Positions 36,800-56,759 of a DNA stretch of 64,000 nucleotides are shown one piece after another (within the stretch, counting starts at the first letter, position 1; each line of letters starts with the position of its first letter). The stretch lies in assembly GCA_965206165.1 (NCBI GenBank), contig OZ242194.1, forward strand, positions 367,451-431,450, in the 5' to 3' direction. The notes under the pieces are model-generated. The model was not told where the DNA came from, did not search any database, and saw only the letters and a list, made by a program, of their open reading frames with translations. Source of the stretch: Acidimicrobiales bacterium (GTDB lineage: Bacteria > Actinomycetota > Acidimicrobiia > Acidimicrobiales > CATQHL01). A program made the translations under genes and the position numbers.

Positions 36800-37565
36800 G
36801 ATCTCGGTGTCTCGGATGGAATTCCTTGTCTTGCAGGAGCTTGCGGCCGGTCTATCCCAGCGTCGAGGTGCATGCCGCCTTGCGCGGCGAGCATACGCTC
36901 CCGCTCGGTCCGCAGGTAGGGGCAACGTGGGCGTCACAACGATGCGATCGACATGACGTGGGTGCGCATTCCGGGGCCGCCGGCCCCAATGGCGAGGAAC
37001 GATCACAGCGGCACTGAGGTGTAAGTTCAGTTAGTTCTATGATTGTAAGGTCTGCGAATAGAAGTGTCAATCCCCGCGGGTCCGCGGTGACTCCTAGACC
37101 TGGTGGCTGTAGGCGCACCGGCGCTGAAGCGCACACCTCGATCCCACCGTCGGCGGCGCTAGCGGCTGAGGGATGCGTCCCTGACGGGGTCCGCCGAGGA
37201 GGCGTTGTCGGGGGTGGGAATGACCTGCATCGGCGAGTTGGCGACATCGACGTCGTCGATCGCCAGCCAGGCCGAGACCACCCGGCGGCCAGCGCCCCGG
37301 CCAGCAGGTCGTCGAAGTAGCGATGGTGGTCAGGCCGTCTATGTCGATACCGGAGCGGCGGCATGTTCTGCGTCGGTGGGGATGAGGAGTCTGGGGTCGG
37401 TGCGCGGAAGAACCGCCCGCGCTGCTGGCTGCGGAGCAGCCGCGATGACAGCGAGTGAACCGATACCTCGCCGTGAGGTGCTGTTCGGTGTCCTCGTGCT
37501 CGCCAACGAGGTCCGCTCGATGGATGACGAGGCTCACAGCTAGGCGACAACCGGCGGGGTCGCTT

Positions 37566-40372: not shown

Positions 40373-41923
40373 ATGATCACCGGTGAACTCAGAACCAAGA
40401 TCGACGCTGTCTGGAACGACTTCTGGTCGGGCGGTATCTCCAACCCGCTCGAGGTGATGGAGCAGCTCACGTATCTGCTGTTCATCAAGGCCCTCGACGA
40501 GCGCCAGACGCTCGCTGAGAACAAGGCGAACCGAACCGGCCAGCCGATCGACGAGGTCATCTTTCCCGAGGGTGAAGATTTCCTGCCCGAAGGACTCGTC
40601 CGCAGCCGACCGTACGGCGACCTCCGCTGGTCGAGGTTCAAGCACCTGCCCGCGGCCGACATGTTCGAGGTGGTCGAGAACTACGTCTTCCCGTTCCTGC
40701 ATCAGCGGGCGGACGAGAGCACCCACGCCAAGCACATGCAGGGTGCCCGTCTCACGATCCCCACTCCAGGGCTCCTGCAGAAGGCGGTGGATGGTCTCGA
40801 CGCGATCCCGATGGCAGACCGTGACACCAAGGGTGACGTCTACGAGTACATGCTCTCCAAGATCGCCACCGCGGGGCAGAACGGCCAGTTCCGGACGCCA
40901 CGGCACATCATCCGGCTGATGGTTGAGATGATGGCTCCCCAGCCGGACGACGTGATCTGTGATCCCGCGAGCGGAACGTGTGGGTTCCTGGTGGCGGCAG
41001 GCGAGTACATCCGCAATCACCATCCGAGCGCACTCACCGACTCAGCGAAGGCACGGCACTTCCACAACGGACTGTTCTCCGGCTACGACTTTGACAACAC
41101 GATGCTACGGATCGGGTCGATGAACATGCAGTTGCACGGCGTGCAGAACCCCAACATCAGCTATCGGGATTCTCTGGCCGAGGACCACGCCGGTGGCACC
41201 GAGGCCTACAGCCTGATCCTCGCCAACCCGCCCTTCGCCGGCTCGCTCGACTACGAGAGCACAGCCAAAGACCTCCTCCAGGTTGTGAAGACCAGGAAAA
41301 CCGAGCTGTTGTTCCTAGCGTTATTCCTGCGGCTCGTCAAACCCGGTGGCAGAGCAGCGGTAGTCGTCCCCGAGGGGGTGTTGTTCGGATCATCCAAGGC
41401 CCACCGCGAGTTGCGCCGCATCCTAGTGGACGATCAGAGGATCGACGGTATCGTCTCGCTGCCAGCTGGAGTGTTCAAGCCCTACTCCGGGGTCTCCACG
41501 GCGATTCTCTTGTTCACCAAGACTAACTCTGGCGGCACCGACTACGTCTGGTTCTACGACCTTGAGGCCGACGGATATAGTCTTGACGACAAGCGAGCGG
41601 CACTGCTCGATCATGCCAAGCTCGGTTGTTCTGCAGTGGCGCTTACAGATAGCGACCGCGCTAAGAATAATCTCCCCGACGCGCTTGACCGCTGGAAGAA
41701 GCGGAACACTTATGAGCGCGATCGCACTCGAATCAACCAGTCCTTTTGCGTTTCCAAAGCTGACATCGTGCGCAATAGCTATGACCTCAGTATCAAGCGC
41801 TACAAGGAAGCTGTTGTCGAAGCGATGGCCTACCCCCAACCAATGGCACTCGTTGCTGAACTCGAAGCACTTGAGATCACGATTGTTCAAGGTATCGCCG
41901 ATCTAAGGGCGATGTTGACATGA
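40373..41923 (+). CDS. hsdM: Type I restriction-modification system, methyltransferase subunit
   Basis: N-terminal HsdM domain (IDAVWNDFWSGGISNPLEVMEQLTYLLFIK), motif I DPASGTCGFL and motif IV NPPFAGS. Confidence 0.95.
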   Translation: MITGELRTKIDAVWNDFWSGGISNPLEVMEQLTYLLFIKALDERQTLAENKANRTGQPIDEVIFPEGEDFLPEGLVRSRPYGDLRWSRFKHLPAADMFEVVENYVFPFLHQRADESTHAKHMQGARLTIPTPGLLQKAVDGLDAIPMADRDTKGDVYEYMLSKIATAGQNGQFRTPRHIIRLMVEMMAPQPDDVICDPASGTCGFLVAAGEYIRNHHPSALTDSAKARHFHNGLFSGYDFDNTMLRIGSMNMQLHGVQNPNISYRDSLAEDHAGGTEAYSLILANPPFAGSLDYESTAKDLLQVVKTRKTELLFLALFLRLVKPGGRAAVVVPEGVLFGSSKAHRELRRILVDDQRIDGIVSLPAGVFKPYSGVSTAILLFTKTNSGGTDYVWFYDLEADGYSLDDKRAALLDHAKLGCSAVALTDSDRAKNNLPDALDRWKKRNTYERDRTRINQSFCVSKADIVRNSYDLSIKRYKEAVVEAMAYPQPMALVAELEALEITIVQGIADLRAMLT

Positions 41924-43122
41924 GTCCGCTCATTGCGGTCAATCAGTTGGCTACCCAGGTACGCGGAGTCTCATACAAGAAGGCGGAGGCTTCACTGACA
42001 CCAGCACCTGAGTTGATTGGTGTGGTCCGCGCGGGCAATATTGTCGATGGCGAGCTAACGACAAGCGCCCTTGTTTATGTACCGGCCGCGAGGGCAAAGG
42101 CAAGCCAATTGTTGAGAAAGGGCGATGTTCTGATTGCCACCTCAAGTGGCAGTCTTGACGTCGTTGGTAAGGCCGCCCGTATCCGCGAAGACGAGAGGGT
42201 GGCGTTTGGAGCGTTTTGTAGAGTGTTGCGGCCCGGTGGACATGTTGATCCAGCTTACTTTGCCCATTATTTCCAGACTGAGAGTTACCGAGCTTACGTG
42301 TCAAGTGTGGCTGCGGGTACTAATATAAACAACCTAAAGAAGGATCATCTCGACGAAATTGCGATTCTTCTGCCACCGATCGAGGAGCAGCGGCGGATCG
42401 CGGCGGTGCTCGACGCGGCTGATGCACTTCGCGCGAAGCGCCGCCAGGCTCTCGCCAAACTCGATTCCTTGAGCGAAGCCATCTTCATCGAGATGTTCGG
42501 TGACCCAGTCACCAATCCTCTGGGATGGCGCAATGACCGTGTACTCGCCGAAGTTGCCGAGGTCCGGTCTGGAATCACGAAGGGACGCAAAACCAGGGGC
42601 GCACCGTTGACCGCCGTGCCATATCTCGCCGTTGTGAATGTCCAAGATGGCTTCATCGCACTCGATCCGCTGAAGTCGATCGACGCTACTGCCGCGGAAG
42701 TCAAGAAATACGCTTTGCACGTTGACGACATCCTTCTGACAGAGGGCGGTGACCCCGACAAACTTGGTCGAGGTGCTGTGTGGCATGGCCAAGTCGAGCC
42801 GTGTATCCATCAGAATCATGTGTTCCGTGTACGGCTGGCTGATAACGGCATGACGCCTGAGTTCCTGAGTCGTCTTCTCGGAAGTCAGCGCGGCAAGCGG
42901 TATTTCCTCCGCATGGCGAAGCAGACCACGGGGATTGCGTCGATCAACATGACGCAGCTTCGAGCTTTTCCTCTACTCGAGCCGCCGCGAGCAGCCCAGG
43001 ACGAGTTCTGCAAGCGACTTTCCTGGGTACAGGCGGCTGAGGCGACACTCCAGCACTCGGCAGACCAACTCGACGCGCTGTTCGCCTCGCTACAGCAGCG
43101 GGCCTTTCGGGGTGAGTTGTGA
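41920..43122 (+). CDS. hsdS: Type I restriction-modification system, specificity subunit
   Basis: Two target-recognition halves separated by conserved helices (LPPIEEQRRIAAVLDAADALRAKRRQAL ... LDALFASLQQRAFRGEL). 4-nt overlaps with hsdM and hsdR. Visibly A/T-richer. Confidence 0.9.
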   Translation: MSPLIAVNQLATQVRGVSYKKAEASLTPAPELIGVVRAGNIVDGELTTSALVYVPAARAKASQLLRKGDVLIATSSGSLDVVGKAARIREDERVAFGAFCRVLRPGGHVDPAYFAHYFQTESYRAYVSSVAAGTNINNLKKDHLDEIAILLPPIEEQRRIAAVLDAADALRAKRRQALAKLDSLSEAIFIEMFGDPVTNPLGWRNDRVLAEVAEVRSGITKGRKTRGAPLTAVPYLAVVNVQDGFIALDPLKSIDATAAEVKKYALHVDDILLTEGGDPDKLGRGAVWHGQVEPCIHQNHVFRVRLADNGMTPEFLSRLLGSQRGKRYFLRMAKQTTGIASINMTQLRAFPLLEPPRAAQDEFCKRLSWVQAAEATLQHSADQLDALFASLQQRAFRGEL

Positions 43123-46100
43123 GCGGATCGCAGTTTTCGTTCCTGGAGGCGGAGTTTTCGGCGGAGTTCGAGATGGCGTCTTGGGCGGAGCGACACGCCT
43201 TGTCGGATCCGGGCCCGGCTGTGATCTATGCGCGGAAGTGCTTGGAATCTGGGGTCAGGTGGGCGTACCGGCACGACCGGGCGCTTCCGCTGCCGTATGA
43301 GGAGAACCTCAATGCGTACCTGAGCGAGCCGGCGTTCAAGGCTCTGGCCGGAGGTCGGGTCTTCGACGTGGCGAGGAAGATCCAGCGAGCTGGGAATCGG
43401 GCGGTGCACGAGTCGAAGCCGCCGTCGAAGTTGGAGGCGGTCGAGATTCTCTCGGCGCTGTTCCAGTTCTGCTTCTGGTTGGCGTTCACCTACGGCCGAT
43501 CGGCGAAGCCCGACCGCTCGGCGAAGTTCGATCCGCACAGGCTGATGGACGCAGGCAAGGCTGCGCAGACCTCGCTGAACGAACGCAGGGACCTTGAGGA
43601 GCGGCTGGGGCGGGAGGCCGAGGAGAATCTCCTGGCCCGTCGGAGGTTGGTGGAGGCGACCCGGACCGCCGAAGAGATCGAGGCTGAGCTGGCCAAGTTG
43701 CGGGCCCAGGTGGCGGCGGCGAAAAAGGCGGCCGAGTCGATTCCGATCGAGGCACACGACTGGTCCGAGGCCGACACGCGCCGGTACAAGATCGATGTGC
43801 TGCTGGCCGAAGCGGGCTGGACCGACTTCGTCGATGGTCGCGACATCGAATACGAGGTGCACGGGATGCCCTCCGACTCGGGAGTCGGCTACGTCGACTA
43901 CGTCCTGTGGGGTGAGGACGGGAAGCCGTTGGCGGTGGTGGAGGCGAAGAAGACCCTGGTCGACCCTCGGGTGGGTGAACAGCAGGCCAAGCTCTACGCC
44001 GATTGCCTCGCTGCTGCGACCGGTCAGCGGCCGGTCGTGTACTACAGCAACGGCTACGAGCACTGGCTGTGGGATGACACCCAGTACCCGGCACGACAGG
44101 TGCAGGGCTTCTACACCCGCGACGAACTCGCCTTGCTCATCCAACGACGCAAGACCCGGCAGCTGCTGTCGTCGCTGGACATCGAGGATCGGATCGTGGA
44201 TCGCCACTACCAGCAGCGAGCGATCCGGGCCATCACCGAGCACTTCGAGACCGATAAGCAACGCAAGGCGCTGGTGGTGATGGCCACTGGTGCGGGCAAG
44301 ACCCGTGCCGTGATCGCTCTAGCGGATCTGCTGATGCGGGCCGGTTGGGTCAAGCGGGTGTTGTTCCTGGCGGATCGTACGGCGCTGGTGCACCAGGCGG
44401 TGAACGCGTTCAAGGCTCACCTGCCGGATTCGGGGCCGGTGAACCTGGTGACCGAGGGCCACGAAGACGGTCGGGTGTACGTCTCGACCTATCAGACGAT
44501 GGTAGGCAAGATCGACGAGTACCGGGCCGATGGCACCCGCCGGTTCGGTGTCGGGCACTTCGATCTGGTGGTGATCGACGAGGCTCACCGGTCGGTGTAC
44601 CGCAAGTACCGGGGCATCTTCGACTACTTCGACTCGCTGCTGGTGGGGCTGACCGCCACCCCGAAGGACGAGGTCGACAAGAACACCTACGACCTGTTCG
44701 ACCTCGAGACCGGCGTGCCCACCGACGCCTACTCGCTCGATGAGGCCATCAAGGACGGCTACCTCGTCCCGCCCCGGGGCGTGTCTGTGTCGTTGAAGTT
44801 CGTGCGCGAGGGAATCCGCTACGGCGACCTGACCGAAGACGAGAAGGACGAGTGGGACGAACTCGACTGGGGCGAGGACGACGACGGCAAGCCGATCGAT
44901 CCGCCCGACGAGGTCAACCCCGATCAGTTGAACAAGTGGCTGTTCAACGAGGACACCGTCGACCGGGTCCTTGAACACCTCATGACCGAAGGGATCAGGG
45001 TGGCCGGCGGCGACCGGCTCGGCAAGACGATCATCTTTGCCAAGAACCAGCTCCACGCCGACTACATCAAGACGCGGTTCGACGCGAACTATCCGGCGCT
45101 GGATGCCGGGAACTTCGCTCGGGTGATCACCTACCAGGTGAACTACGGGCAGAGCCTGATCGACGACTTCTCGAACAAGCACAAAGCACCCCACATAGCG
45201 ATCAGCGTCGACATGCTCGATACCGGCATCGACATCCCCGAGATCGTCAACCTGGTGTACTTCAAGCTGGTTCGCTCCAAAACCAAGTTCTGGCAGATGC
45301 TCGGCCGCGGCACCCGGCTGTGCGAGAACCTGTTCCGGCCCGGTGACGACAAGGCCAACTTCAAGGTGTTCGACTTCTGTCAGAACCTCGAGTACTTCAG
45401 CCAGCCACTCGCCCCGGCCGAGCCGTCCGGCGGCATACCGCTCGGCGAGGCACTCTTCGCTGCCCGTCTCGAACTGCTCGACGTGCTTGGGGGGATGGAG
45501 GCCCTCGGTGACGCACGGGCAAGTGTCGCTACCACCTTGTGCGAGACCGTTGCGTCGATGAACGAGAACAACTTCCTGGTACGCCCCCACCTGGAGCTGG
45601 TCGAACGCTTCCGCGCTCCCAAAGCGTGGGAAACGATCACTCTCGAAGACCTGGCAGCGCTCAAGAGCCGGGTCGCGAAGCTGCCCGACCAGCTCGACGC
45701 CGACAACGAGGACGCCAAGCGCTTCGACGTCGTGATGCTCAGTGCCCAACTCGGCCTGCTCCGCCATGAGCCGTTCGAGCGGCAACGCAAGCGCATCATC
45801 GCCGTCGCGTCCGCGCTCGAAGACCTCGGCGCCACTATCCCTGCCGTCGCCGAGCAGATGGAGCTGATCGCCGACATCCAAACCGACGAGTGGTGGGTGG
45901 ACGTCAGCTACCCCATGCTCGAAGACGCTCGCAAGCGGCTGCGCAGCATCGTGCAACTCATCGAGCGCTCCCGCAAGACGCCGCTGTACTCCGACTTTGG
46001 CGACGATCTCGGTGAGAGCACCGAAGTCGAGCTCCCCGGCACCGGGGGCAGTGTTGGCAGCCCCGAGTTCGCGCAGTTCCGCAAGAAGGCCCGGCACTTC

Positions 46101-46535
46101 CTCAAGGAGAATCTCGCTAACGACATCGTGGCCAAGATCCGCAGCGGCGAACCAATCGGCGCCGCCGAGATGGACGAACTCCAGCGGGTGCTCGTTGCCG
46201 CCGGTATCGGCGATACCGAAACCTTCGCCCAGGCCTCAGAACGCGCCGGCAGCTTCGGGCTCTTCGTCCGCTCCCTCGTCGGCCTCGACCGGGCTGCCGC
46301 GAAACGGGCCTTCGCAACGTTCCTCGACGACAAGCGCTACAGCCGCAACCAGCTCACCTTCGTCAACCTGGTCATCGACTACCTCACCGAGCACGGCACC
46401 ATCGACCCCGCCCGTGTCTACGACTCACCGTTCACCAGCGTCGCACCGGAAGGTCCCGAGGTCATCTTCGTCAAGGACGATCTAGACGACTTCTTCGAAA
46501 TCGTGCGACAGCTTCACGACGCAGCCATCGCGTGA
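43119..46535 (+). CDS. hsdR: Type I restriction endonuclease subunit R (EcoEI-like, with DUF4145-like N-terminus)
   Basis: HsdR_N block EADTRRYKIDVLLAEAGW, Walker A MATGAGKT, DEAH box VIDEAHRS and a long C-terminal EcoEI_R_C-like region. Confidence 0.9.
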   Translation: MSGSQFSFLEAEFSAEFEMASWAERHALSDPGPAVIYARKCLESGVRWAYRHDRALPLPYEENLNAYLSEPAFKALAGGRVFDVARKIQRAGNRAVHESKPPSKLEAVEILSALFQFCFWLAFTYGRSAKPDRSAKFDPHRLMDAGKAAQTSLNERRDLEERLGREAEENLLARRRLVEATRTAEEIEAELAKLRAQVAAAKKAAESIPIEAHDWSEADTRRYKIDVLLAEAGWTDFVDGRDIEYEVHGMPSDSGVGYVDYVLWGEDGKPLAVVEAKKTLVDPRVGEQQAKLYADCLAAATGQRPVVYYSNGYEHWLWDDTQYPARQVQGFYTRDELALLIQRRKTRQLLSSLDIEDRIVDRHYQQRAIRAITEHFETDKQRKALVVMATGAGKTRAVIALADLLMRAGWVKRVLFLADRTALVHQAVNAFKAHLPDSGPVNLVTEGHEDGRVYVSTYQTMVGKIDEYRADGTRRFGVGHFDLVVIDEAHRSVYRKYRGIFDYFDSLLVGLTATPKDEVDKNTYDLFDLETGVPTDAYSLDEAIKDGYLVPPRGVSVSLKFVREGIRYGDLTEDEKDEWDELDWGEDDDGKPIDPPDEVNPDQLNKWLFNEDTVDRVLEHLMTEGIRVAGGDRLGKTIIFAKNQLHADYIKTRFDANYPALDAGNFARVITYQVNYGQSLIDDFSNKHKAPHIAISVDMLDTGIDIPEIVNLVYFKLVRSKTKFWQMLGRGTRLCENLFRPGDDKANFKVFDFCQNLEYFSQPLAPAEPSGGIPLGEALFAARLELLDVLGGMEALGDARASVATTLCETVASMNENNFLVRPHLELVERFRAPKAWETITLEDLAALKSRVAKLPDQLDADNEDAKRFDVVMLSAQLGLLRHEPFERQRKRIIAVASALEDLGATIPAVAEQMELIADIQTDEWWVDVSYPMLEDARKRLRSIVQLIERSRKTPLYSDFGDDLGESTEVELPGTGGSVGSPEFAQFRKKARHFLKENLANDIVAKIRSGEPIGAAEMDELQRVLVAAGIGDTETFAQASERAGSFGLFVRSLVGLDRAAAKRAFATFLDDKRYSRNQLTFVNLVIDYLTEHGTIDPARVYDSPFTSVAPEGPEVIFVKDDLDDFFEIVRQLHDAAIA

Positions 46536-46905
46536 TCAAATCAATTGGTCAATTCCGGATTTCATGCGGTCGAGATTTACAATTGCGGCAGGCAACGACG
46601 CGGGCTCCGGGACTCGAGCAAGTGGCAGCTTGGTGCGCTGTGGCCACCGCGGCGCAGACGACGATAGGGATATTCGCATACGTCCGCTCAGGGCGAACTC
46701 TCCCGGTCGTCGTAGTTAGCGGGCCACTGCCAGGAACGGCATCCGATCCCACAACCCCAGAACATAATGACCTCAGCGGCCGAGGGCGGACACCGACTGG
46801 CGTTCGGCAGAGGAGACACGCCTACACGTTGTTGCCGACGAACCATGGAAGCTGAGCTGCCCGCGCACCGATGTTCGGAACGGTCCCCGCGACGAGATGC
46901 CACGA

Positions 46906-48117
46906 TCAGAGTACACTGTCCTTGTCGACAGCTTGGGCTGGCGCACCGAATGTGAGTATGGTCTCCGTCCGCATACGGCGCGCTAGCGAGGACGTGCTTG
47001 CGGAAGGTGGCGGAAGATAGCGTCTCGTAGGCGGTAGGTCTCGCTCGAAGCGTTCAGTCAGCAACAATCCGTGCCTGCATGCTACCGTCGCCACAATCGC
47101 TGCATTGTCAACCGCAACTCCGCGAATGGATGAGTTGCCAATGATGAAGACCGCGCGACCGTTCTCTTCTAGGACGCGGGAAGTTTCTGCAAGTACCATG
47201 TCCATGTCTCCAGCAAAGCGACGGAGCATGTTCCGAGAACGTCCAGGTAATGCTTCGACATTGCGGCAACTTCGTAGAATCTGCTCTACGCAGTCATGGT
47301 CGTAGTCCTGCGTTGGCGCTCGCTCAGCTCCGATGCTCGCTGAACGAATACGCCGTAGACCATCCAAGGGCTCTCCAAGCCAGATCAGTGCTAGGCGATG
47401 ACCGCGCAGGTAGTCGATAGCGTTGAGGTACGGTGGTGATGTCACCACCGCAGCAATGCTGCCGTTTTCGATATCGGCTAGGTTCCTTGCGTCGCCAAGT
47501 CGGACAGAAGAATTCGAGCCACATGGAACATCAATAGCAGCGACAATCTGTTCTACAGATGGGATGAAAGCGTCGAGAACATCGAAGCTACTTTGATCCC
47601 AAACTCGGTGAGGCCGACTATGTGCGGTATCACGTGCCAATGAAGCGCCGGGCTCCTTGCGGATGATCAGACGGCTGAGGGCTAGTTTCAGCAGATCGCT
47701 AGTTGCGCCATGTTCAGTGAGCAGTGCCAAAGCAAGGGCACGCAACTGCTGTTCTTGCTTGGACGCAAACCAGAAGCGTACGAACGCCGTCGCCTGGGGG
47801 TTGTTGTCAATGGCCGGCAACGAGAGGGCGCCATATCCAAGCAGCTCGTGCGCTCGCTTGAGCGTTGCTATCGCGGCATCTCTGACGGCCGTCAGATCCG
47901 GCTTCGTGGTCGCGACCCTAGACATAAGCACCGCGAGCGGATCGATGTCTCTACCAGTGGCCGCGAGGCCTTGACGTAACGATTCGGTAAGGACGGTGCC
48001 GGATCCACACATCGGATCAAGTACGCGAGCACCCGGGCGGACTCCCTGCAACGCGTCCAGCGCTAGTTGCGGGGCCATCCGAGCCGGGAACGGATGTACA
48101 TAGCGAGTGGCCATCAC
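46906..48117 (-). CDS. DNA methyltransferase (N6A or N4C class)
   Basis: AdoMet motif VLDPMCGSGT near the N-terminus and catalytic TSPPY (VVTSPPYLNAIDY). The start overlaps the stop of the upstream GHKL gene (GTGATG). Confidence 0.8.
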   Translation of the reverse strand: MMATRYVHPFPARMAPQLALDALQGVRPGARVLDPMCGSGTVLTESLRQGLAATGRDIDPLAVLMSRVATTKPDLTAVRDAAIATLKRAHELLGYGALSLPAIDNNPQATAFVRFWFASKQEQQLRALALALLTEHGATSDLLKLALSRLIIRKEPGASLARDTAHSRPHRVWDQSSFDVLDAFIPSVEQIVAAIDVPCGSNSSVRLGDARNLADIENGSIAAVVTSPPYLNAIDYLRGHRLALIWLGEPLDGLRRIRSASIGAERAPTQDYDHDCVEQILRSCRNVEALPGRSRNMLRRFAGDMDMVLAETSRVLEENGRAVFIIGNSSIRGVAVDNAAIVATVACRHGLLLTERFERDLPPTRRYLPPPSASTSSLARRMRTETILTFGAPAQAVDKDSVL

Positions 48118-50675
48118 GTATCGGCTATCAGGGCGTGTATTTCAATCTGCAGATCGTCGGCCAGGCGCCGGTCGAGTTCGCGAATGACCTCGGCCGCAGA
48201 TTGGTCCATACGGACATAACCGTCATCCTCCACACTGAGCCAGCGTTCACCTAGGAGTTGGGCGATTGCCTCTAGTGCGGACTTTAGTCGCTCGGGATTA
48301 TGTAGCTTGAGCGGAGCGTGATTCGCTCTTGCCGCGTTCAGATGAGGCCTCGAATTTTCGTCGTGTTGCTTTTCCTTCTCGAGGGCCCGGAGAAGCTCGC
48401 CTAGAGGTAGTTCTTGCTTGGCCTCAAGGCGTTCTTGAAGCCGCTTCACCCAGTCCTTTGTCTCGGGAACCGTGTGGGCACTCTCGAAGAGATCTCTCAG
48501 TTCAGGAAACGTCAATCCGAACCTGTAATGAAGTCTCACTAAGGTTATGAGATCAATTGTCCGCAGCACTGTCACCTTGTCTCCTCTTTCAGCAACGGAG
48601 TCAATACGCCGGTTTAGTGCTCCAGCCGCATCATTCTCTGCCTCGAAGCTGTGTCCAACGACTAAACCGTACTCCGCGCTCATAGAATCGGCAAATTCGA
48701 CAATCGCCTGGACGTTCACTTTGTTGGCCGCAATTCCAGTGCTATCTGATGTCTTCGCATCGTAGACGACCGAATAGTCAAGAGTATCGTCCAATCCGCG
48801 CCCCAAACGTGCACGGATAATCCCATCGGGACGGCCTGCACCGCCGAGTGGCTCGTAGTCGAATCCAATAATCTCAAAGCCGCGCCCGACGGCGCGCTCC
48901 ATCGCAAGAGGATCTGCATTGGCAATCTGGAGGTGGCGCAGCACTGCTGCTACGTCCATTGGCTGTTCGCCTGCCAGACGGCGAAGGATGTGATCACGCT
49001 GACGGAAAATCTCATGTACTTCGTAACCGCTTAGTCCACTGCTGCGGACGAGCGCGTAGGTCATGATCTCTGACGCTGTCAGAAGCCGCGCGGGACTGCT
49101 TCCCTTAGCGTTTGCAACGATACGAGACCCAAACGGGTGATCCTTGTTTAGGTACATGATGCCTGTCGCAGAATCGTATCTGCACAGTTGCCCTTGTGGC
49201 TCATCGCGGACCACCTCAAAATCAGCAAATGTTTGCTGCCGGAGTCTCTCGTCGGTTTCCGCTAGCCACGAGTCAACTGCGGCGTCGTCAATCTCCGGTG
49301 TCTGTATGTAGTTGAAAGCCGGGCCCCCATCATGGAGGTCGCTACGAATGGCCGCTAGGAGAGGAGCGACTAGGACAGGCGATATGTCCCTTTCAAGGAT
49401 GCTGTCGATCTCGATGTCGTCAAGCTGTGTTTTGGCGTGGTTGTCATAGAACGCGCGACAAGCGTTAAAGGACTTGTGCATGTAACGCCGCAAATCTCTG
49501 ATTGGTTCTGAGTCGCGGACGCCCTCGCGCGACGATAAGAGATGATCTCTGAGGCCATCGGCATCTATCTCCATTATGAAATGCGCCCAGGCCGAATGGT
49601 TCATAGCATTAAGGCCAAATAGCTCATCGTCAAGATTGATGACCCGTCCTCGGACTCGAACGAAAAAGCCATTGCTCCGGCCATACTCAAGAGACTTGCC
49701 TCTCGTTAGCTCATCCTTGAAGATTCTTGCCTTCCCGGTTACGCTTCCGATACCAGCGATCTTGACTCCGCTGGCAGTGGTTGATAGGTTGAGATCTATC
49801 GCAGCTCTGTCGTCGGTTCCACCGACCTCGATCGTATGGAGCACTTCTCCTTGGGTCTTCGAGGGTTCTAGTCGCGTGGCATTGAGATGGATGGTGAAGT
49901 TTGATATCAAGGGAAGGCCCGTCCTCAGTACCCATCCGAGTCGGCCCTCTTGGAGCTTGTCAACCAATTCACGGAAATCAGAAAGGGCAGCAGCTGTCCA
50001 AGTGGGAGAGCTGTCGGGTCCAAAGAGACGCCCCCACATGTGCGGATCAAGCTCCTCTATTCTGCTCAATAGAACACGGGCGTCAGCCTCCGAGATGCTG
50101 TGAAGGTGCACCTTGGCAGGGTCGGACTTTGGGTCGCTCTGCCGGCCGGTAACCGTACGGAAGTTCATGTTCGCGAATCGGAACTCGCCTGCCGCGGACT
50201 TACTGATGTGGGTCAACTGCCAAGCTAAGACATATGCTGCAAGCTTTCCGATCCCGAACTGACCAATCGGAGAACGACCGTGCTGTTCATTTCCACTGGC
50301 CTTGTTCGACTCTGCAACGAGCCATAGTTGGCGGAATCCATCGTCGTCCATCCCGCACCCGTCGTCGACTACCCAGAGTACTTGGTCCTCGACATCAACA
50401 GGATCTGCGGAAGGTAGCACCACCGATACGAGCTGCGCTCCTGCATCGAACGAGTTCGCGACCAGTTCTTCAACAGCCTTGTGAGGACTCTGGTATAGCC
50501 CTTCTGAAAAGAGTCTGATGATGTCGTAGCTGATCGGGACTGGGATCTCAGTACCTTCAGTATTCTCGGCCAGGCGATGCCGGAGCTGTCGAGGTGAAGG
50601 TTGGTATTGATTCACGAGATCGTTCTCCTCTGATACGCGGAATACTTGGTGCTTCAACGTTGCCCTTGCATCCAC
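48114..50675 (-). CDS. GHKL (HATPase_c_3, MORC-like) ATPase fused to a PD-(D/E)xK nuclease-like C-terminal domain
   Basis: Bergerat N-box EELVANSFDAGA and G1 box VVDDGCGM (nt about 50346-50471), then G2-like GQFGIGKLA. C-terminal GRPDGII...YSVVYDAKTS (nt about 48750-48840) fits PD...(D/E)xK. Confidence 0.75.
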   Translation of the reverse strand: MDARATLKHQVFRVSEENDLVNQYQPSPRQLRHRLAENTEGTEIPVPISYDIIRLFSEGLYQSPHKAVEELVANSFDAGAQLVSVVLPSADPVDVEDQVLWVVDDGCGMDDDGFRQLWLVAESNKASGNEQHGRSPIGQFGIGKLAAYVLAWQLTHISKSAAGEFRFANMNFRTVTGRQSDPKSDPAKVHLHSISEADARVLLSRIEELDPHMWGRLFGPDSSPTWTAAALSDFRELVDKLQEGRLGWVLRTGLPLISNFTIHLNATRLEPSKTQGEVLHTIEVGGTDDRAAIDLNLSTTASGVKIAGIGSVTGKARIFKDELTRGKSLEYGRSNGFFVRVRGRVINLDDELFGLNAMNHSAWAHFIMEIDADGLRDHLLSSREGVRDSEPIRDLRRYMHKSFNACRAFYDNHAKTQLDDIEIDSILERDISPVLVAPLLAAIRSDLHDGGPAFNYIQTPEIDDAAVDSWLAETDERLRQQTFADFEVVRDEPQGQLCRYDSATGIMYLNKDHPFGSRIVANAKGSSPARLLTASEIMTYALVRSSGLSGYEVHEIFRQRDHILRRLAGEQPMDVAAVLRHLQIANADPLAMERAVGRGFEIIGFDYEPLGGAGRPDGIIRARLGRGLDDTLDYSVVYDAKTSDSTGIAANKVNVQAIVEFADSMSAEYGLVVGHSFEAENDAAGALNRRIDSVAERGDKVTVLRTIDLITLVRLHYRFGLTFPELRDLFESAHTVPETKDWVKRLQERLEAKQELPLGELLRALEKEKQHDENSRPHLNAARANHAPLKLHNPERLKSALEAIAQLLGERWLSVEDDGYVRMDQSAAEVIRELDRRLADDLQIEIHALIADT

Positions 50676-51351
50676 CGCTTCGTGAACGCGATTCTTGGGC
50701 TCAATGGGGAAGGGAATGAGCTTGTTTCAGGAAGCCAGTTAGCGCTCGCACGTGCTACGTGTCGATGACGTGAGCAGGTGCTCCTTTTTGGCGCGCGCTT
50801 GCGGGAGCTCAGCACTCCGAGAGGCTCGACGTCTTCCGTCGGAGTTGTCTCTTTGTTCATCGAAATCCAGTTCGTCCACGGGAGAAACGGTAGCCACTGG
50901 GGGATGATCTCGATGTTACAGTCTAGTGGGGTGCCGAACGGCGGGTTCCGCATCGACCGTGTTGTCTCGTGCAACTTCTATCACTCCAGGTGCCAATGGG
51001 GCTTTCCGACAGTTCAGCACGGGTCTGTGACAGGGTCGGACCATAGTACGTAAGAATCGCCCTAGGCGTGGTGACGTGAGTGTCTGGTGTCCGACCGGAG
51101 CGGTGGCGCGACGTCGGCAGTGTCAGAGGCGTCCAAGTCTGGTGGAGTTCTCGCCATCAGACCGGGTCATCGGTCCGTGGTCCTCGAGGGACGAGGAGTT
51201 CCGCCCACCGAGGGCCATGCCTACGACTGTCCTACAGGTAGACCCTCCCAGCTACCTCGAGGGCCCAACCGGTTAGGGGAACTGTCTGGCGGGTGGTGCA
51301 AGGCCGGGAGCGGCGGTGCGCGTTGATGCGGCGGTCGTTGGGTCTGCTTCG

Positions 51352-51878
51352 TCACGTGTGTGTGCCGAGGAAGGTGCGGAGATGGTCTGTCAGGATCTTC
51401 AGTTGGTCGATCGGGATGAGGGTTCGGCTGTCGTCGACCCACACAAGTTGGGTGTTCTTGAAGCGTTCGGCTATCCGTTCGGCGCGGGCGGGGGGCATGA
51501 GTTCGTCGTGTCGTGCCCAGACGATGAGAACCGGGCCGCCGAAGGTGCGCTGCTGGGCGGCCCACTCGAGCAGCAGCTTGGGTTTGGGGACGTTGCGGAG
51601 GTACTTGTTGAGGTCGCGGCGGACCTTGGGGTTGTCGCGCAGCGGGTGGATCCAACTCCCGAAGAAGTCGTCGGAAACCCGCCGCTTCGACAGGGCGCCG
51701 AAGGGGAGGGGGGCGTTGCAGACCACTGTGACGTGGCGCAGGTCGAGTTCGGTGAGGAACCCCGGCGATCATGGTGGCGAGCGCTGGGAGGGAGAGGGTG
51801 CAGCAGCACCACGACCGGCCCGTCGCCGCCGGTGTCGGAGTACATGAGGCCGGCGGCCGTCGGCCCCGCGAGCCGCAT
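51352..51878 (-). pseudogene. Alpha/beta hydrolase remnant (frameshifted, internally deleted)
   Basis: An N-terminal piece MRLAGPTAAGLMYSDTGGDGPVVVLLH sits in one frame (from 51878). A C-terminal piece ...GGPVLIVWARHDELMPPARAERIAERF... sits in another (51352-51726). The G-x-S-x-G elbow region is missing. Confidence 0.6.
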
Positions 51879-51961
51879 CGCCCTACACCGTTGACAGTCG
51901 CGAGCCCGAGCCGCCGCGACGACCGCCACCGCTTCTGGGCCTCAACGGCAAATCCGCGGGG

Positions 51962-52282
51962 CTAGATGTCGAGGGCCGGCGCGTCACCGCCAACCCCTGG
52001 GCCGGGGACGTCCGGGCGGGCCTGCAGCGCGGCGGCGAGATCGGGTACTGAGACAGTGATGGCGTCCCACACCAGATCGGGGTCCACCTTGAAGTAGGAG
52101 TGGGCGATGAAGTCGCGCATGCGCCTCGCGCCGGCGAGATCGAGTCCGGGGAGTGCGGCCACAAACCGTGCGGAGAGGTGGCCGGCGGCCTCCCCGATGA
52201 TCTCCAGGCGGCGCTCTGCGATGTCGCGCTGGCGCCAACCCGTGTCGAAGGCCTCGCGGCCCTCGGCGACGATCTCCGCCAA
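51962..52282 (-). CDS. hepT: HepT-like (DUF86) ribonuclease toxin, N-terminally compromised
   Basis: R-x(4)-H-x-Y motif (RMRDFIAHSY). The longest ORF starts at TTG 52282. Upstream in-frame sequence (ARRDAERVEHILDAVAK) is cut off by TAG at 52334-52336. Confidence 0.65.
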   Translation of the reverse strand: MAEIVAEGREAFDTGWRQRDIAERRLEIIGEAAGHLSARFVAALPGLDLAGARRMRDFIAHSYFKVDPDLVWDAITVSVPDLAAALQARPDVPGPGVGGDAPALDI

Positions 52283-52344
52283 CTTGGCGACCGCGTCCAG
52301 GATGTGCTCGACCCGCTCGGCGTCGCGGCGGGCCTAGCGGTCGG

Positions 52345-52635
52345 TCACAGTGCGATAGCCGCGCGAAACATGTCCGCGTGCTTCGGCTCGAGGCTCCCGG
52401 TGGAGATCACGTCCACATCGACGCCCAGCATCTCCTCGAGGGCGAGTTCGAGGTGCGCCAGATCCAACAGCGAGGCACCCTTGGCGGACGTCACCAAGAA
52501 GTCGTAGTCACTGTCCTCGGTGTCCTCGGCACGGGCCACCGAACCGACCAAAGCAATCGAGGTGGCCTTGTTCGCGGCGGCCGCGGCCACGATGGGCTCG
52601 CGGTGTTCGCCAAGGACGCGGTCGCGACGGGTCAT
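52345..52635 (-). CDS. mntA: MNT-type nucleotidyltransferase antitoxin
   Basis: GSVARAEDTEDSDYDFLV matches the G-S-x(n)-D-x-D minimal nucleotidyltransferase motif. 96 aa, directly upstream of hepT. Confidence 0.8.
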   Translation of the reverse strand: MTRRDRVLGEHREPIVAAAAANKATSIALVGSVARAEDTEDSDYDFLVTSAKGASLLDLAHLELALEEMLGVDVDVISTGSLEPKHADMFRAAIAL

Positions 52636-52862
52636 AACCCCATGGTACCCATGGTCCCGCCACCGATCCCGTGGCGGCGGTCGATGTTCGGCGAGGCGCG
52701 GTGGTGTGGCACATGTCGCGGTGTGAGCGCTCGGCGCAACTTGCGGTTGTGGCGCAGCGGATGGATCCAGCTCCTGAACAGGTCGTCGAGAACCCGCCGC
52801 TTCGAAAGGGTGGAGGTCCCCCAGCGGAAGCGCGCAGTGGCTTCTCGGCGATAGCCGACCCT

Positions 52863-53000
52863 CCCCCTCGAATTGGGGGCGAATAGAGAGGGTATTGGGA
52901 GAGCGAGGACTGCCTACGACGTGAAACCGCAGGTCAGAGGGGTTTCACCGGGCCAATACACCCCCCTCGAATAGAACGCGGATAGAGAGGTCTTGCGCCG
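52863..53000. repeat. Partial copies of the 88-bp repeat family (left flank of the AlbA_2 gene)
   Basis: ccccctcgaattgggggcgaatagagag...gaaaccgcaggtcagaggggtttcaccgggcc (52863-) and the terminal variant cccccctcgaatagaacgcggatagagaggtcttgcgcc (52961-). Homologous to 54650-54950. Confidence 0.75.
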
Positions 53001-53251
53001 AAGGGCAAACCCGGGACGATGCACTGCTGGCAATCTCGCAGGCCGTTGAATCGAGCACGAATTGAACGGCTGGCTATTGCCAACGACGCGAAACCGCAGT
53101 GCGGCAGGTTCAGGCATCTCCCCCGACTTGAACGCCAATGGAGCGGTGGGCTGGGTTGGATCGGCATCGCCGAGCCCTGTGCGGCCCTTGCAGGGAGCGG
53201 ACTCGAGTTGTATTCGCCCCTCAGCATCTCTGCCCCGGCGATACTGGAGTC

Positions 53252-54664
53252 ATGACAACGTCCGACGAGGTTGCTCTGCTGGCGGCGGCGGGTGAATCCG
53301 AGACCATCGAGTTCAAGGCCACGACAGGCCAGCGAACCGAGGCGGCGCGGACCTTGTCGGCCATGCTGAACGGCCGGGGTGGACGGGTGCTGTTTGGTGT
53401 GCAGCCCGGGGGCCATGTGACCGGCCAACAGGTGGCCGACAAGACACTGCAGGACGTGACGCAGGCATGCCGGGACATCCACCCGTGGCATCCGCCGTCG
53501 ATCGACCGTGTCCCCTTGCCGACCGGCCACCAGCGAGCGGTTCTCGTCGTCACGGTCCCCGCCGGCGCCAACAAGCCCTACTCCCACAAGGGGCGCTACT
53601 ACGTGCGCTCAGGCGCGTCGACAGTCGACATGCCCGACGAGACCCAGGTGTCGCTGGTGCTCGAGCGCGCTCATGGCTGGCAGCGATGGGAGGTCGAGAG
53701 TTCGCAACGCGACCTCGACGCCATCGACGACGACGAAGTGTACGCATTCCGCAACGATGCGGTAGCCGCAGGGCGTGCCGGATTCGATGCCGACGCCTCG
53801 GTGGCCGACGTTCTACGGGCGCTGCACCTTCTCGATGCGGACGGCAAGCCGAATCGAGGTGCCGTTGCACTCTTTGGGCGGTCTGATGCGTTCTCCGGCG
53901 AGTACCCGACCCTGGGTTGCCGGCTCGTGGCGGTGGCCGGCACGGACCTCGGCGAGGAGTTCCGTGACGACGATCTCCTGGAGGACAACGCGTTCGCTTC
54001 GCTGCGCCGGGCGATGGTGTTCTGCGAAGAGCACCTTCACCGCCCGGTGCGCATCACGGGCAGGCTCCAGGCCGAGACGGGCTCGGAGATCCCGCCCGAG
54101 GTCGTGCGCGAGGCGCTCGCGAACAGCTTCGGCCACCGCGATTACGCCGTCGCAGGGCGGGTTCAGGTGCGGATCTTCTCGGATCGGCTGGAGGTATGGT
54201 CGCCGGGCAGGCTGCATTTCGGGCTCACGCCCGCCGATCTGTACGTACCCCACGGCTCGCATCCATGGAATCCCAACATGGTGGGCTGCCTGTACCGGCG
54301 TGGCATCGTGGAGCAACTCGGGTCCGGAACGCTACGCATGGCGAGAATGTGCTCCGAGGCCGGACTCGGTCGTCCGGTTTTCACCGCTGACAGCACATCG
54401 GTGACCTGCAGCGTTCCGAGGCGTGGACACTGGCTGGCGCCGGACGGGTTGAGCATTGCGGTCAGCGAGCCGGAGGCGACCGTGCTAGCGGTGCTCGCGG
54501 ACGGCCCGGCCGCGCGAGGCCAACTCGCCGCCGACGTGGGTGCCAGTGCTGCGACGATGCGGGAGATGCTGACGCACCTGCGGGAACTCGGTCTCGTGCG
54601 CGTGGAGGGCCACGGCCGGGGCGCGCAATGGCTTCTCAGCGACGGCTTGCCCCCCTCGAATTGA
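53252..54664 (+). CDS. AlbA_2 (Schlafen-like) / HATPase_c_4 / wHTH protein (often mis-annotated RecG-like)
   Basis: 470 aa from ATG 53252. N-terminal ESETIEFKATTG, central REALANSFGHRDY ... GSGTLRMARMC, and C-terminal wHTH LTHLRELGLVRVEGHGRGAQW. Confidence 0.7.
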   Translation: MTTSDEVALLAAAGESETIEFKATTGQRTEAARTLSAMLNGRGGRVLFGVQPGGHVTGQQVADKTLQDVTQACRDIHPWHPPSIDRVPLPTGHQRAVLVVTVPAGANKPYSHKGRYYVRSGASTVDMPDETQVSLVLERAHGWQRWEVESSQRDLDAIDDDEVYAFRNDAVAAGRAGFDADASVADVLRALHLLDADGKPNRGAVALFGRSDAFSGEYPTLGCRLVAVAGTDLGEEFRDDDLLEDNAFASLRRAMVFCEEHLHRPVRITGRLQAETGSEIPPEVVREALANSFGHRDYAVAGRVQVRIFSDRLEVWSPGRLHFGLTPADLYVPHGSHPWNPNMVGCLYRRGIVEQLGSGTLRMARMCSEAGLGRPVFTADSTSVTCSVPRRGHWLAPDGLSIAVSEPEATVLAVLADGPAARGQLAADVGASAATMREMLTHLRELGLVRVEGHGRGAQWLLSDGLPPSN

Positions 54665-54950
54665 GAGCGAATGGAGAGGCCGGAGACAGCCCACGACACG
54701 AAACCGCAGTTCAGAAGGGGCTCACCGGACCAGCACACCCCCCTCGAATAGAGAGCGAATAGAGAGGCCGGAGACAGCCCACGACACGAAACCGCAGTTC
54801 AGAAGGGGCTCACCGGACCAGCACACCCCCCTCGAATAGAGAGCGAATAGAGAGGCCGGAGACAACTCGCAACACGAAACCGCAGTTCAGAGGCGGCTCA
54901 CCGGGCCAGCACACCCCCCTCGAATAGAACGAGAATAGAGAAGGTCTTGT
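54650..54950. repeat. 88-bp tandem repeat, three full units plus a terminal variant
   Basis: Units start at 54650, 54738, 54826 and 54914 (exact 88-bp period). Unit 1 overlaps the last codons and the stop (54662-54664) of the AlbA_2 gene. Confidence 0.9.
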
Positions 54951-55133
54951 GCCAGCGACGCAGGCGGATTCGGTGCCCCTCCACCCAGGGAGCATCAACC
55001 TCCCCGGTCGTCACAGTTAGCGGTAGGCATCCTTGCGTGCGGCGATCCTCAGCACGACGATTCGGCAGGACCCTGACCGTGGCGTCAGCGGGTGCGGCCA
55101 AGTAGGGCGGCGGGCGACGCAGCCGCCTATTGC

Positions 55134-55442
55134 GCTGTCAGGAGAAGCCGGTGATGGCTCTCGGGTCGGCGCGGGGGTCGGCCAGTTCTAGTGGCCCCCA
55201 GGCCTCGGCCGCTACCCGGCTCAGGAAGTCGGCGATGAGGGTGTTGGAGTTGCCTGAGCGCTCCCTGAGGGGTCATGCCGAGCGCCTCCGCGAGTGTTCT
55301 CGTTGGTAGAGGTCCGTCGGGCCAAGTGCGAGTTGCGCGACGACGTCAGGGGCTCGCTGAACAGGCGGGTGCGGCTGATCTCGCCGTGCGAGCCGCCGGG
55401 GTTGGTGGCTCGGAGGCGGTCGGGGTAGGCCTCGATGCGCAC
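55134..55442 (-). pseudogene. Mosaic gene remnants: alpha/beta-hydrolase 3' end copy plus a HATPase_c_4/wHTH fragment
   Basis: 55134-55247 parallels the 3' end of gene 56760-57704 (NTLIADFLSRVAA...ITGFS*). 55322-55442 encodes RIEAYPDRLRATNPGG...LFSEPLTSSRNSHLA, like the C-terminal half of the AlbA_2-type proteins. The reading frame shifts between the pieces. Confidence 0.55.
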
Positions 55443-55476: not shown

Positions 55477-56676
55477 GTGCATGATGTGATGGATCTTCAA
55501 GGATATGCTGGCTGGATGCCGTTGGTAGACCGGCCGGTTGACGCCCGAAACCTGCACGAGGCCATATCCCATGCTCCGGTGACGCTGCTGACCGGCCCCC
55601 GTCAAGTGGGCAAGACCACCCTTGCCCGCCAGACCATTGCCTCGTCGCCATCGGCGTTCTACGACCTCGAGGACCATCGCGACCTCGCCCGCCTCGCCGA
55701 GCCGACGCTGGCGCTGCGCGACACCGGCGAGACAATCGTGATCGACGAGGCCCAGCGACTGCCGGAGTTGTTCCCGACGCTGCGAGTCCTCGTCGACGAG
55801 GATCGCCGGCCCGGCCGCTTCGTCGTGCTCGGCAGCGCGTCGCCCGATCTCATCGGCCTGGGTTCGGAGTCATTGGCCGGCCGAGTCACCTTTGTCGAGT
55901 TGGGGGGCTTGCGGCTTGCCGATGTCGGTGCGCAACGCCTGGACGACCTCTGGCTGCGCGGCGCCCTGCCCGAGTCGTTCGTCGCCGCAACCGACGAAGC
56001 ATCGAACCGCTGGCGCGACGACTACATCTCGACGTTCCTCGAGCGCGACCTGGCCAATCTGGGATTCCGGTTTCCGGCCACGACGATGCGGAGATTCTGG
56101 ACAATGCTGGCCCACTACCACGGTCAGACCTGGAACGGCGCCCGAATCGCCCGCTCTATCGACGTGTCGGAGTCAACCGTCAGGCGGTACATCGACGCGC
56201 TCACCGATGCCCTGATTGTTCGCCAGCTGCCGCCCTGGTTCGCCAACATCTCAAAGCGCCAGGTCAAGTCGCCCCGGGTCTACATCCGCGATTCGGGCGT
56301 GCTGCACCGCCTTCTGGGCATCGCCGGCATGCTCGACCTCGAGCGCTCGCCGATGCTCGGTGCCAGCTGGGAGGGCATGATCGTCGAACAGCTCCTGACC
56401 AGATTCACCCCCACCCATCCGGCTTACTGGTCGACCCACGGAGGCGCCGAACTCGACCTGCGCCTGGAGATCGACGGACGACTTCTGGGATTCGAGATCA
56501 AGCGCACCACCCGGCCATCGGTATCCAAATCGATGCACAGCGCCATTGCCGATCTCGACCTCGATCATCTGTTCGTCGTTCACGCCGGCCCCCACCGGTT
56601 CCCCCTCAACGAGCACGTCACCGCCATCAGTGCCGTCGAACTCCTGACAGGAACAAACCCGCTCGCCGGCCCGTGA
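55477..56676 (+). CDS. AAA ATPase with DUF4143 domain
   Basis: Walker [10 protein letters not shown], Walker [11 protein letters not shown] and a C-terminal DUF4143-like region. GTG start, with alternative starts slightly downstream. Confidence 0.75.
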
Positions 56677-56759
56677 GCGACCAAGTGCGAGTTGTGCGAC
56701 GACGTGAGGGGCTCGCTGAACAAGCGTGGGGCGGGGGCAGCCACCTCCCGCCATCGCTG

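Follow-up and report, generated by a model that had tools for sequence, protein, structure and literature searches.

A GHKL ATPase-nuclease gene coupled to a DNA methylase gene in an Acidimicrobiales defence island: a probable restriction-modification module

We analysed two adjacent genes in a 64,000-nt stretch of DNA from an Acidimicrobiales bacterium (GenBank assembly GCA_965206165.1, contig OZ242194.1, positions 367,451 to 431,450 of the forward strand), which is called the window below and whose positions are used throughout. The larger gene encodes a protein with an N-terminal GHKL ATPase and a predicted C-terminal nuclease (the ATPase-nuclease), the smaller one a putative DNA amino-methyltransferase (the methylase); the pair is examined here as a probable restriction-modification (R-M) module. 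Coordinates are collected in Table 1. Both open reading frames (ORFs) were found where a reading made from the letters of the window, referred to as the sequence-only reading, had placed them (48114..50675 and 46906..48117), with the start of the large gene corrected to 50615, and the motifs that it quoted (EELVANSFDAGA, VVDDGCGM, GQFGIGKLA, GRPDGII...VVYDAKTS, VLDPMCGSGT and TSPPY) are all present in the translations. The mechanical maximum of the large ORF, 48114..50675 on the minus strand, gives 853 aa from a GTG. The true start is likely the GTG at 50615, not the one at 50675, because a GAGGAG precedes the former by 9 nt and the database gene calls have an 833-aa product that is 100% identical to the ATPase-nuclease. 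Homologues numbered more than 1500 for the ATPase-nuclease (typically ~830 aa) and more than 7000 for the methylase, and many were full-length with E values of 0 to 1e-100; both ORFs are therefore real genes and not chance ORFs. At the junction, the TGA stop of the nuclease gene (48116-48114) overlaps the GTG (48117-48115) and the ATG (48114-48112) of the methylase frame. This GTGATG overlap had been read as translational coupling; it is seen in the sequence and recurs in the family. The claim of an atypical composition also stood: GC is ~0.53-0.58 over 47000-51000 vs ~0.65-0.71 in most flanking DNA, and GC at third codon positions (GC3) is 0.58 and 0.57 in the two module genes vs 0.75-0.90 in their neighbours, with the exception of hsdS (0.61). 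A terminator-like hairpin follows the methylase gene; the region holds five such sites vs 4.0 expected from shuffles, and this hairpin alone is not significant.

Table 1. Features of the two-gene module and its surroundings (positions of the window; residues in the 833-aa numbering)
Feature	Position	Strand	Basis or remark
ATPase-nuclease gene (putative restriction subunit), 833 aa	48114..50615	-	stop codon 48114-48116 included
Shine-Dalgarno-like GAGGAG	50625..50630	-	9 nt 5' of GTG 50615; read from sequence; putative function
Bergerat-fold GHKL ATP-binding domain	50016..50543	-	residues ~25-200; Pfam, alignment, PDB sequence and fold searches
Middle (transducer, S5-like) domain	49506..50015	-	residues ~201-370; AF2 mixed alpha/beta elements, Foldseek
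Helical linker and small three-stranded unit	48954..49505	-	residues ~371-554; AF2 secondary structure; no Pfam match
PD-(D/E)xK nuclease domain (predicted)	48516..48953	-	residues ~555-700; AF2, Foldseek, residue conservation
C-terminal helical domain with short beta-hairpin	48117..48515	-	residues ~701-833; AF2 model
DNA amino-methyltransferase gene (putative), 402/403 aa	46906..48117	-	translation
GTGATG junction, nuclease-gene stop overlapping methylase start	48112..48117	-	sequence; translational coupling
Terminator-like hairpin (weak evidence)	46771..46785	-	consensus scan; ~120 nt 3' of methylase stop
Type I R-M operon: hsdM (516 aa), hsdS (400 aa), hsdR (1138 aa)	40373-46535	+	
UvrD-like helicase (788 aa) and adjoining 734-aa protein	34640-39770	-	734-aa protein: weak PLD/NgoFVII-type nuclease matches
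HepT toxin gene	51962-52282	-	
88-nt repeat regions	52873-53108 and 54650-54941		

In the N-terminal part of the large protein, Pfam detected a single family, HATPase_c_3 (E 2.3e-15, above cutoff, residues 63-179 in the 853-aa numbering). The three Bergerat motifs were located as motif I, E49-E50-x3-N54-x2-D57; motif II, D84-x-G86-x-G88; and motif III, G118-x2-G121-x-G123-K124 (G118-Q-F-G-I-G-K124). Their residues are invariant in an alignment of 118 homologues, and the domain matches Hsp90 N-domains in both sequence and fold searches of the PDB. By these motifs the protein is assigned to the GHKL (Bergerat-fold) ATPase superfamily, and the HATPase_c_3 match and the invariant residues bear out the GHKL ATPase first proposed. 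The full-length AlphaFold2 (AF2) model has a mean predicted local distance difference test score (pLDDT) of 85.5. Foldseek aligned it with the ATPase modules of MORC2/3/4 over ~420-446 columns (template modelling score normalized by the target, ~0.5) and with Hsp90/TRAP1 over longer stretches (420-700 columns overall), the latter scoring slightly higher by fold. These alignments run well past the ATP-binding domain, and a middle, transducer-type domain is therefore present; in the 118-homologue alignment its blocks R313-S-x-G-F-F and S361-S-R-E-G-V-R367 are invariant and K307 is near-invariant. The scan of the large protein with Pfam gave no S5 or MORC profile match. Judged by the models, the term 'MORC-like' used in the sequence-only reading is no better supported than 'Hsp90-like' for the ATPase and middle domain. 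The helical linker that follows is the least conserved part of the large protein in the alignment and is a candidate for dimerisation or DNA recognition. A Foldseek search of viral structures (BFVD) with the full-length model returned generic GHKL proteins only (RIIA, Hsp90 and topoisomerase). Phage RIIA ('protector from prophage-induced early lysis'), itself a GHKL-type protein, was among the best viral fold matches to the GHKL and middle part.

The C-terminal region was modelled separately by AF2 (residues 548-833; pLDDT 88.7, predicted template modelling score (pTM) 0.86). The nuclease part has the order alpha-beta-beta-beta-alpha-beta (H569-583, E586-589, E598-602, E614-621, H635-644, E649-654), and in the model E573 lies in helix 1, D597 starts strand 2 and D619-A-K621 ends strand 3. 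E573, D597 and K621 are invariant among the 118 homologues; D619 is at least 90% conserved and is replaced by Glu. The top PDB match of the nuclease model is FokI (Foldseek E 5e-6, 186 columns, root-mean-square deviation 4.1 Å, 18% identity), followed by HindIII (E 1.9e-4), EcoT38I and the FokI-like nicking enzyme Nt.BspD6I, with weaker matches to the SPARDA and PaqCI nucleases. The predicted structure and its conserved residues indicate that the C-terminal region holds a PD-(D/E)xK restriction-endonuclease fold, at the place where an endonuclease core had been suspected from the GRPDGII...VVYDAKTS block. The nuclease domain was also aligned with the Mrr_cat part of a plasmid-encoded 'restriction endonuclease' of Priestia (25% identity over 169 aa), in which the E, D and DAK positions are the same; this alignment supplies an independent, transitive sequence link from the nuclease domain to Mrr_cat. 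The Priestia aryabhattai protein (687 aa, plasmid NZ_CP083270, locus L081, 2768-4831) consists of winged helices and Mrr_cat. What it has in common with the ATPase-nuclease is the nuclease domain and a portion of the helical region behind it; DNA-binding winged helices stand where the ATPase-nuclease has the GHKL module, and its gene adjoins AbiH and an AAA ATPase. The C-terminal helical domain of the ATPase-nuclease always co-occurred with the nuclease domain in the profile search. It had no confident Foldseek match in the PDB, and as modelled it is possibly DNA-binding.

The methylase carries its S-adenosylmethionine (SAM)-binding motif VLDPMCGSGT at residues 31-40 and the catalytic TSPPY at residues 225-229, with a variable insert of ~120 aa after the former. 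The REBASE-derived MTase_II model of PADLOC (PDLC03322) aligned to it end to end (E 9.6e-26), and all 26 family members tested matched Pfam N6_N4_Mtase (best 6e-23). In a search of the PDB with the family profile, the first match was the Thermus modification methylase TTHA0409 (3e-13), followed by DNA cytosine-N4 methyltransferases (3e-10) and then by M.PvuII, M.MboIIA, M.RsrI, DpnA and CcrM. The TTHA0409 match is permuted and falls into three stretches, namely motif IV, the strand after it and motif I. By homology, the methylase is thus assigned to the N6_N4 family of amino-methyltransferases acting on DNA, with the SAM motif moved to the N-terminus; the DNA methyltransferase called at the outset was upheld, and the family found was neither an RNA nor a protein methylase. 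Of 67 relatives, 65 have TSPPY as motif IV and two have SSPPY; in the window protein it is V-T-S-P-P-Y. The PROSITE-type signature of N4-cytosine methyltransferases is [LIVMF]-T-S-P-P-[FY], and a homologue with 49% identity is labelled cytosine-N(4)-specific in UniRef. These matches are suggestive of N4-methylcytosine rather than N6-methyladenine as the product, and the motif is not decisive. In single-sequence searches the significant matches were confined to the SAM-binding motif of ~50 residues (Pfam UPF0020; best PDB match archaeal Trm11), which accounts for the varied database names of the methylase homologues ('Trm11', 'TRM11 family', 'DNA modification methylase').

Next, we examined the distribution of the pair. 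The survey covered one genome per species (185,579 species genomes), and gene neighbourhoods were taken from the best 80 loci, 77 of which had enough flanking DNA. At least 435 relatives of the ATPase-nuclease were detected, spread over many bacterial phyla and some Archaea. With a profile of the C-terminal module, 714 clusters at 50% identity were obtained among 1.84 billion representatives, and nearly all full-length hits were proteins of ~830 aa with the same architecture. Proteins of ~600-700 aa were considered as an alternative architecture and rejected; the one examined is a 5'-truncated fragment of the same architecture. A methylase homologue was present at 70 of the best 80 loci and was adjacent and on the same strand in 68 of the 77 with flanks, downstream of the nuclease gene in closer relatives and upstream of it in a clade with ~30% identity; at one further locus the coupled gene in this place encodes a different N6_N4 methylase. 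Where the methylase gene lies downstream, its start codon is -8 to +30 nt from the stop of the nuclease gene in 44 of 55 loci, and it overlaps or abuts that stop in 28. Across relatives, the distance of the ATPase-nuclease from the window protein correlates with that of the methylase (Spearman 0.80, n=66). All-against-all clustering of the neighbourhood ORFs of the 80 loci found no third conserved gene near the pair. A larger multi-gene system that would include the adjacent type I R-M genes was accordingly rejected, as only two genes are conserved. Linked and co-inherited, yet separate, nuclease and methyltransferase genes are a defining property of type II R-M systems, and the family has this property; the conserved gene pair strongly backs the R-M-like role proposed at first sight.

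Some family members stand without an adjacent methylase. In one of them (L038:5980-8433) the nuclease triad has been lost (D597G, D619G, K621R) and the ATPase motifs are kept; another (L011:6193-8403) is truncated at its N-terminus. Loss of the triad in one such copy and truncation in another are as expected of a decaying R-M pair. A tblastn search of the plasmid database PLSDB gave two partial matches only, and the family is therefore not plasmid-borne in PLSDB. At nine related loci, a protein of ~900-1050 aa with an N6_N4_Mtase domain is encoded a few kb downstream of the pair (for example L003:11164-14334, 1056 aa); a similar protein of 1055 aa is found at L033:10297-13464. The gene may be an additional, independent one for modification or defence that accompanies the module in one clade.

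The module of the window lies in a defence island. One flank holds genes for a UvrD-like helicase and a PLD/NgoFVII-like nuclease along with a complete type I R-M operon, transcribed towards the module; the other holds genes for a HepT toxin, a Schlafen/AlbA_2 protein and an AAA_14/DUF4143 ATPase. The island was compared with a contig of a related strain (L083), which matches best over 43078-51878 (96.7% identity). That contig has unrelated sequence in place of the hsdS region (~41808-43078), which is low in GC3 in the window, as expected for specificity swapping; it also lacks 51878-55415 and has there a different cassette with an NYN-domain gene. The comparison therefore shows a variable island within which the two-gene module is stable. 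Horizontal acquisition of the module, claimed from its codon usage in the sequence-only reading, is well supported by the low GC3 together with the patchy distribution of the family and the variable island. The acquisition was not very recent, because the strain with ~97% identity has the module too.

Further details of the island were noted. HsdR carries an N-terminal DUF4145 and an EcoEI_R_C domain. A 107-aa ORF (46532-46855) overlaps the hsdR stop; it matched no family, and the gene calls of the related contig do not include it. The UvrD-like helicase and the adjoining 734-aa protein may form another two-gene defence system. An 87-nt direct repeat, 83% identical (51609-51695 and 52724-52810), brackets the HepT gene and its presumed MNT partner; this repeat and the replacement in L083 suggest cassette exchange within the island. 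Three tandem copies of an 88-nt unit directly follow the Schlafen/AlbA_2 and HATPase_c_4 gene (53138-54664) and diverged copies directly precede it, so that this gene is bracketed by the same repeat in a cassette-like manner. The AT skew peaks at 0.41 at 54500-54999. Direct repeats of ~230 bp, 91-93% identical (55133-55367 and 56681-56859), flank the AAA_14/DUF4143 ATPase gene (55477-56676), which looks like an insertion that duplicated the 3' end of the neighbouring gene.

Several known systems resemble the pair. Iyer, Abhiman and Aravind (2008, PMC2292703), cited in the sequence-only reading, predicted a role in R-M systems for prokaryotic MORC and paraMORC ATPases. Their paper already describes a fusion of this kind, paraMORC3, a GHKL and S5 protein with a C-terminal nuclease of restriction-endonuclease fold (E-D-ExK), and places some MORC/paraMORC genes outside R-M contexts, perhaps recruited for repair. 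In REBASE, five subfamilies with GHKL N-termini were recognised in the same year (Orlowski and Bujnicki 2008, PMC2441816); among them are HgiDII, a real enzyme, and R.VeiORF1182P, a putative one. The R.VeiORF1182P subfamily (putative type II) has the same architecture as the present family, a GHKL N-terminus and a PD-(D/E)xK C-terminus, in a comparison made by description only (PMC2441816). R.HgiDII and R.BbrUII (type II, GTCGAC; NCBIfam NF050001) share with the ATPase-nuclease the N-terminal GHKL domain and an adjacent cognate methylase gene. In contrast, the match of the present family to NF050001 is limited to the GHKL domain (48 bits vs a cutoff of 550, residues 60-177) and thus far below the full-length cutoff, their methylases are 5-methylcytosine enzymes, unlike the amino-methyltransferase found here, and for the C-terminal domain of HgiDII no nuclease fold could be assigned (PMC2441816).

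The closest resemblance in domain order is to Shedu. Proteins of the paraMORC3 type are today classified as Shedu type 1D (Adams et al. 2025, PMC12137116; Gu et al. preprint, PMC10441436), and in 2025 the phage defence conferred by one of them, VcSduA (GHKL and PD-(D/E)xK), was found to be abolished by mutating either the GHKL glutamate or the nuclease lysine (PMC12137116). VcSduA and Shedu 1D resemble the ATPase-nuclease in being single polypeptides that begin with a GHKL domain, continue with a middle domain of the Hsp90/MORC-like kind and end in a PD-(D/E)xK nuclease, whose pattern is E-D-(D/E)xK; they too occur in defence islands. The pair might accordingly be built around a Shedu-like, infection-sensing nuclease, in which the GHKL domain senses a phage cue and unleashes the nuclease and the methylase is not a protective partner, a reading to which the few intact copies without an adjacent methylase (L014 and L018, below) also lend some colour. 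We consider it unlikely. The Shedu nuclease is DUF4263, which none of 24 family C-terminal sequences matched at E values up to 10, whereas the present nuclease is nearest to FokI and HindIII by fold and to Mrr_cat by sequence. No PADLOC Shedu model matched the ATPase-nuclease at E up to 1, where its sole matches were two REase_II models over the ATPase domain. Moreover, the Shedu and paraMORC3 genes are described as standalone, whereas the present family is methylase-coupled in ~90% of loci, usually start-on-stop and with the two proteins co-diverging. Membership of Shedu or of another defence family modelled by PADLOC was thus rejected, DUF4263 being absent and the PADLOC matches being confined to the ATPase domain. 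The design was anticipated in 2008 and has been partly validated elsewhere, and the methylase-linked family itself is widespread and unnamed. The earlier statement that the architecture is uncharacterised therefore stands for this methylase-linked family and does not stand for the fusion as such, in view of the tests on VcSduA and of HgiDII and BbrUII as real GHKL restriction enzymes.

As for the nuclease, FokI, which like Nt.BspD6I and PaqCI is a type IIS enzyme, is the best fold match and shares the P-D ... D-x-K catalytic pattern; its non-specific cleavage domain pairs to cut both strands, and this pairing suggests the mechanism proposed below for the ATPase-nuclease. FokI differs in having no ATPase: its dimerisation is driven by DNA and protein concentration with no nucleotide-gated clamp, and its recognition domains are unrelated. 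R-M systems of the CglI and NgoAVII type, which belong neither to type I nor to type III, need an accessory motor that hydrolyses nucleotide in order to cleave. That motor is a helicase-like ATPase on a separate subunit, the nuclease is of the PLD type, and neither system has a GHKL domain.

We concluded that the pair is probably a self-contained R-M module, horizontally acquired and residing in a defence island, in which a FokI-like nuclease would be gated by ATP-driven dimerisation. The gene pair, the predicted folds, the intact catalytic residues and the conserved linkage are shown here, whereas activity in restriction, the protective effect of methylation, dependence on ATP and the identity of the methylated base are inferred. 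In the proposed sequence of events, the methylase would mark a specific sequence in host DNA and the ATPase-nuclease would bind unmethylated target DNA. ATP binding would then close the N-terminal GHKL gate to give a dimer; ATP-driven dimerisation through such a gate is established in MutL, Hsp90, MORC and GyrB. The dimer would join two FokI-like nuclease domains, each cutting one strand to produce a double-strand break, and ATP hydrolysis would reset the clamp. The intact and invariant ATPase suggests that one criterion of type II enzymes, no ATP requirement, may fail here. More tentatively, the module could represent a new class of R-M system, in which an ATP-gated GHKL clamp, and not a helicase or translocase motor, dimerises FokI-like domains on unmethylated DNA; we regard this as a real possibility that falls somewhat short of an even chance.

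A number of observations count against the R-M module as proposed. The restriction role of the family is read from sequence and predicted structure. Sequence-only searches miss the nuclease: phmmer and profile hmmsearch of the C-terminal domain against the PDB gave Hsp90 N-domains or noise only, Pfam Mrr_cat matched 3 of 24 C-terminal sequences with E 0.014 or worse, and PDDEXK_1 matches were sporadic with E > 0.01; the nuclease assignment therefore rests on the predicted structure and the motif conservation. Within the ATPase-nuclease protein, no sequence-specific DNA-recognition domain was identified. The HgiDII-type enzymes are classed as ordinary type II, so a GHKL domain alone is no proof of ATP-requiring cleavage. 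The coupled order, nuclease gene before methylase gene and with no controller gene, leaves the protection of a new host on entry unexplained. Finally, two Chloroflexota copies (L014:5902-8403 and L018:5950-8454) are intact, have no adjacent methylase and lie among housekeeping-type genes, both flanked, in conserved synteny, by genes for an MFS transporter and a beta-eliminating lyase. The setting hints at domesticated or differently regulated copies. They sit uneasily with a strict R-M reading, unless they are served by a methylase encoded elsewhere, and constitute the main loose end.

A methyl-directed repair or nicking system of the MutL/MutH or very-short-patch type, which would nick near hemimethylated sites and serve genome maintenance, appears rather less plausible still than a Shedu-like nuclease. 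GHKL, transducer and nuclease together are the design of MutL, the nicking enzyme Nt.BspD6I is among the fold matches, and there are the MORC/paraMORC genes outside R-M contexts that Iyer et al. thought possibly recruited for repair. A repair system is expected to be a vertically inherited core function, whereas the present family shows a patchy, horizontal distribution across phyla and the module has a foreign base composition and lies in a variable defence island; the neighbourhoods of the 80 loci contained no MutS-like or helicase partner. It is very improbable that the methylase is an RNA methyltransferase (Trm11/Trm14-like, N2-guanine) in a toxin-antitoxin-like module acting on RNA: homologues do go under the names 'tRNA G10 N-methylase Trm11' and 'TRM11 family methyltransferase' in several databases, and archaeal Trm11 and UPF0020 are the best single-sequence matches, but these span only the short SAM motif, whereas the family profile aligns best with DNA methyltransferases at motif I, motif IV and the following strand, the N6_N4_Mtase and MTase_II matches are uniform and full-length, respectively, and the partner has the fold of a DNA restriction enzyme. 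A modification-dependent (type IV) nuclease that cuts foreign methylated DNA next to a functionally unrelated methylase is about equally improbable: the nuclease domain does resemble an Mrr_cat-type protein in sequence and Mrr enzymes are modification-dependent, but a co-evolving, translationally coupled methylase is the opposite of what this would predict and would endanger a type IV enzyme, and no modified-base reader domain (SRA, EVE or YTH) was found in the Pfam scans.

The R-M module proposed here is easily missed by annotation. Database labels for the nuclease read 'ATP-binding protein' and those for the methylase 'hypothetical protein' or 'TRM11 family methyltransferase'; PADLOC recognises the methylase and matches the nuclease in its ATPase domain only, so the pair is probably scored as an orphan methylase, and such annotation may lead to undercounting of a whole class of R-M systems. 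Methylome catalogues would gain a new specificity from the methylase, and a FokI-like cleavage domain that is controlled by a nucleotide could be of interest for enzyme engineering. For the role of GHKL ATPases in restriction, a question that has stood since the predictions of 2008, the pair offers a compact system of two genes. If the proposed mechanism is true, the ATPase-nuclease would be the first proven case of a restriction enzyme whose gate is an ATPase of the MutL/Hsp90/MORC type. The family would then also provide a simple bacterial model of how MORC-type ATPases couple the methylation state of DNA to action on DNA, with a bearing on eukaryotic MORC proteins, in which ATP-driven clamping of DNA is linked with methylation-marked chromatin.

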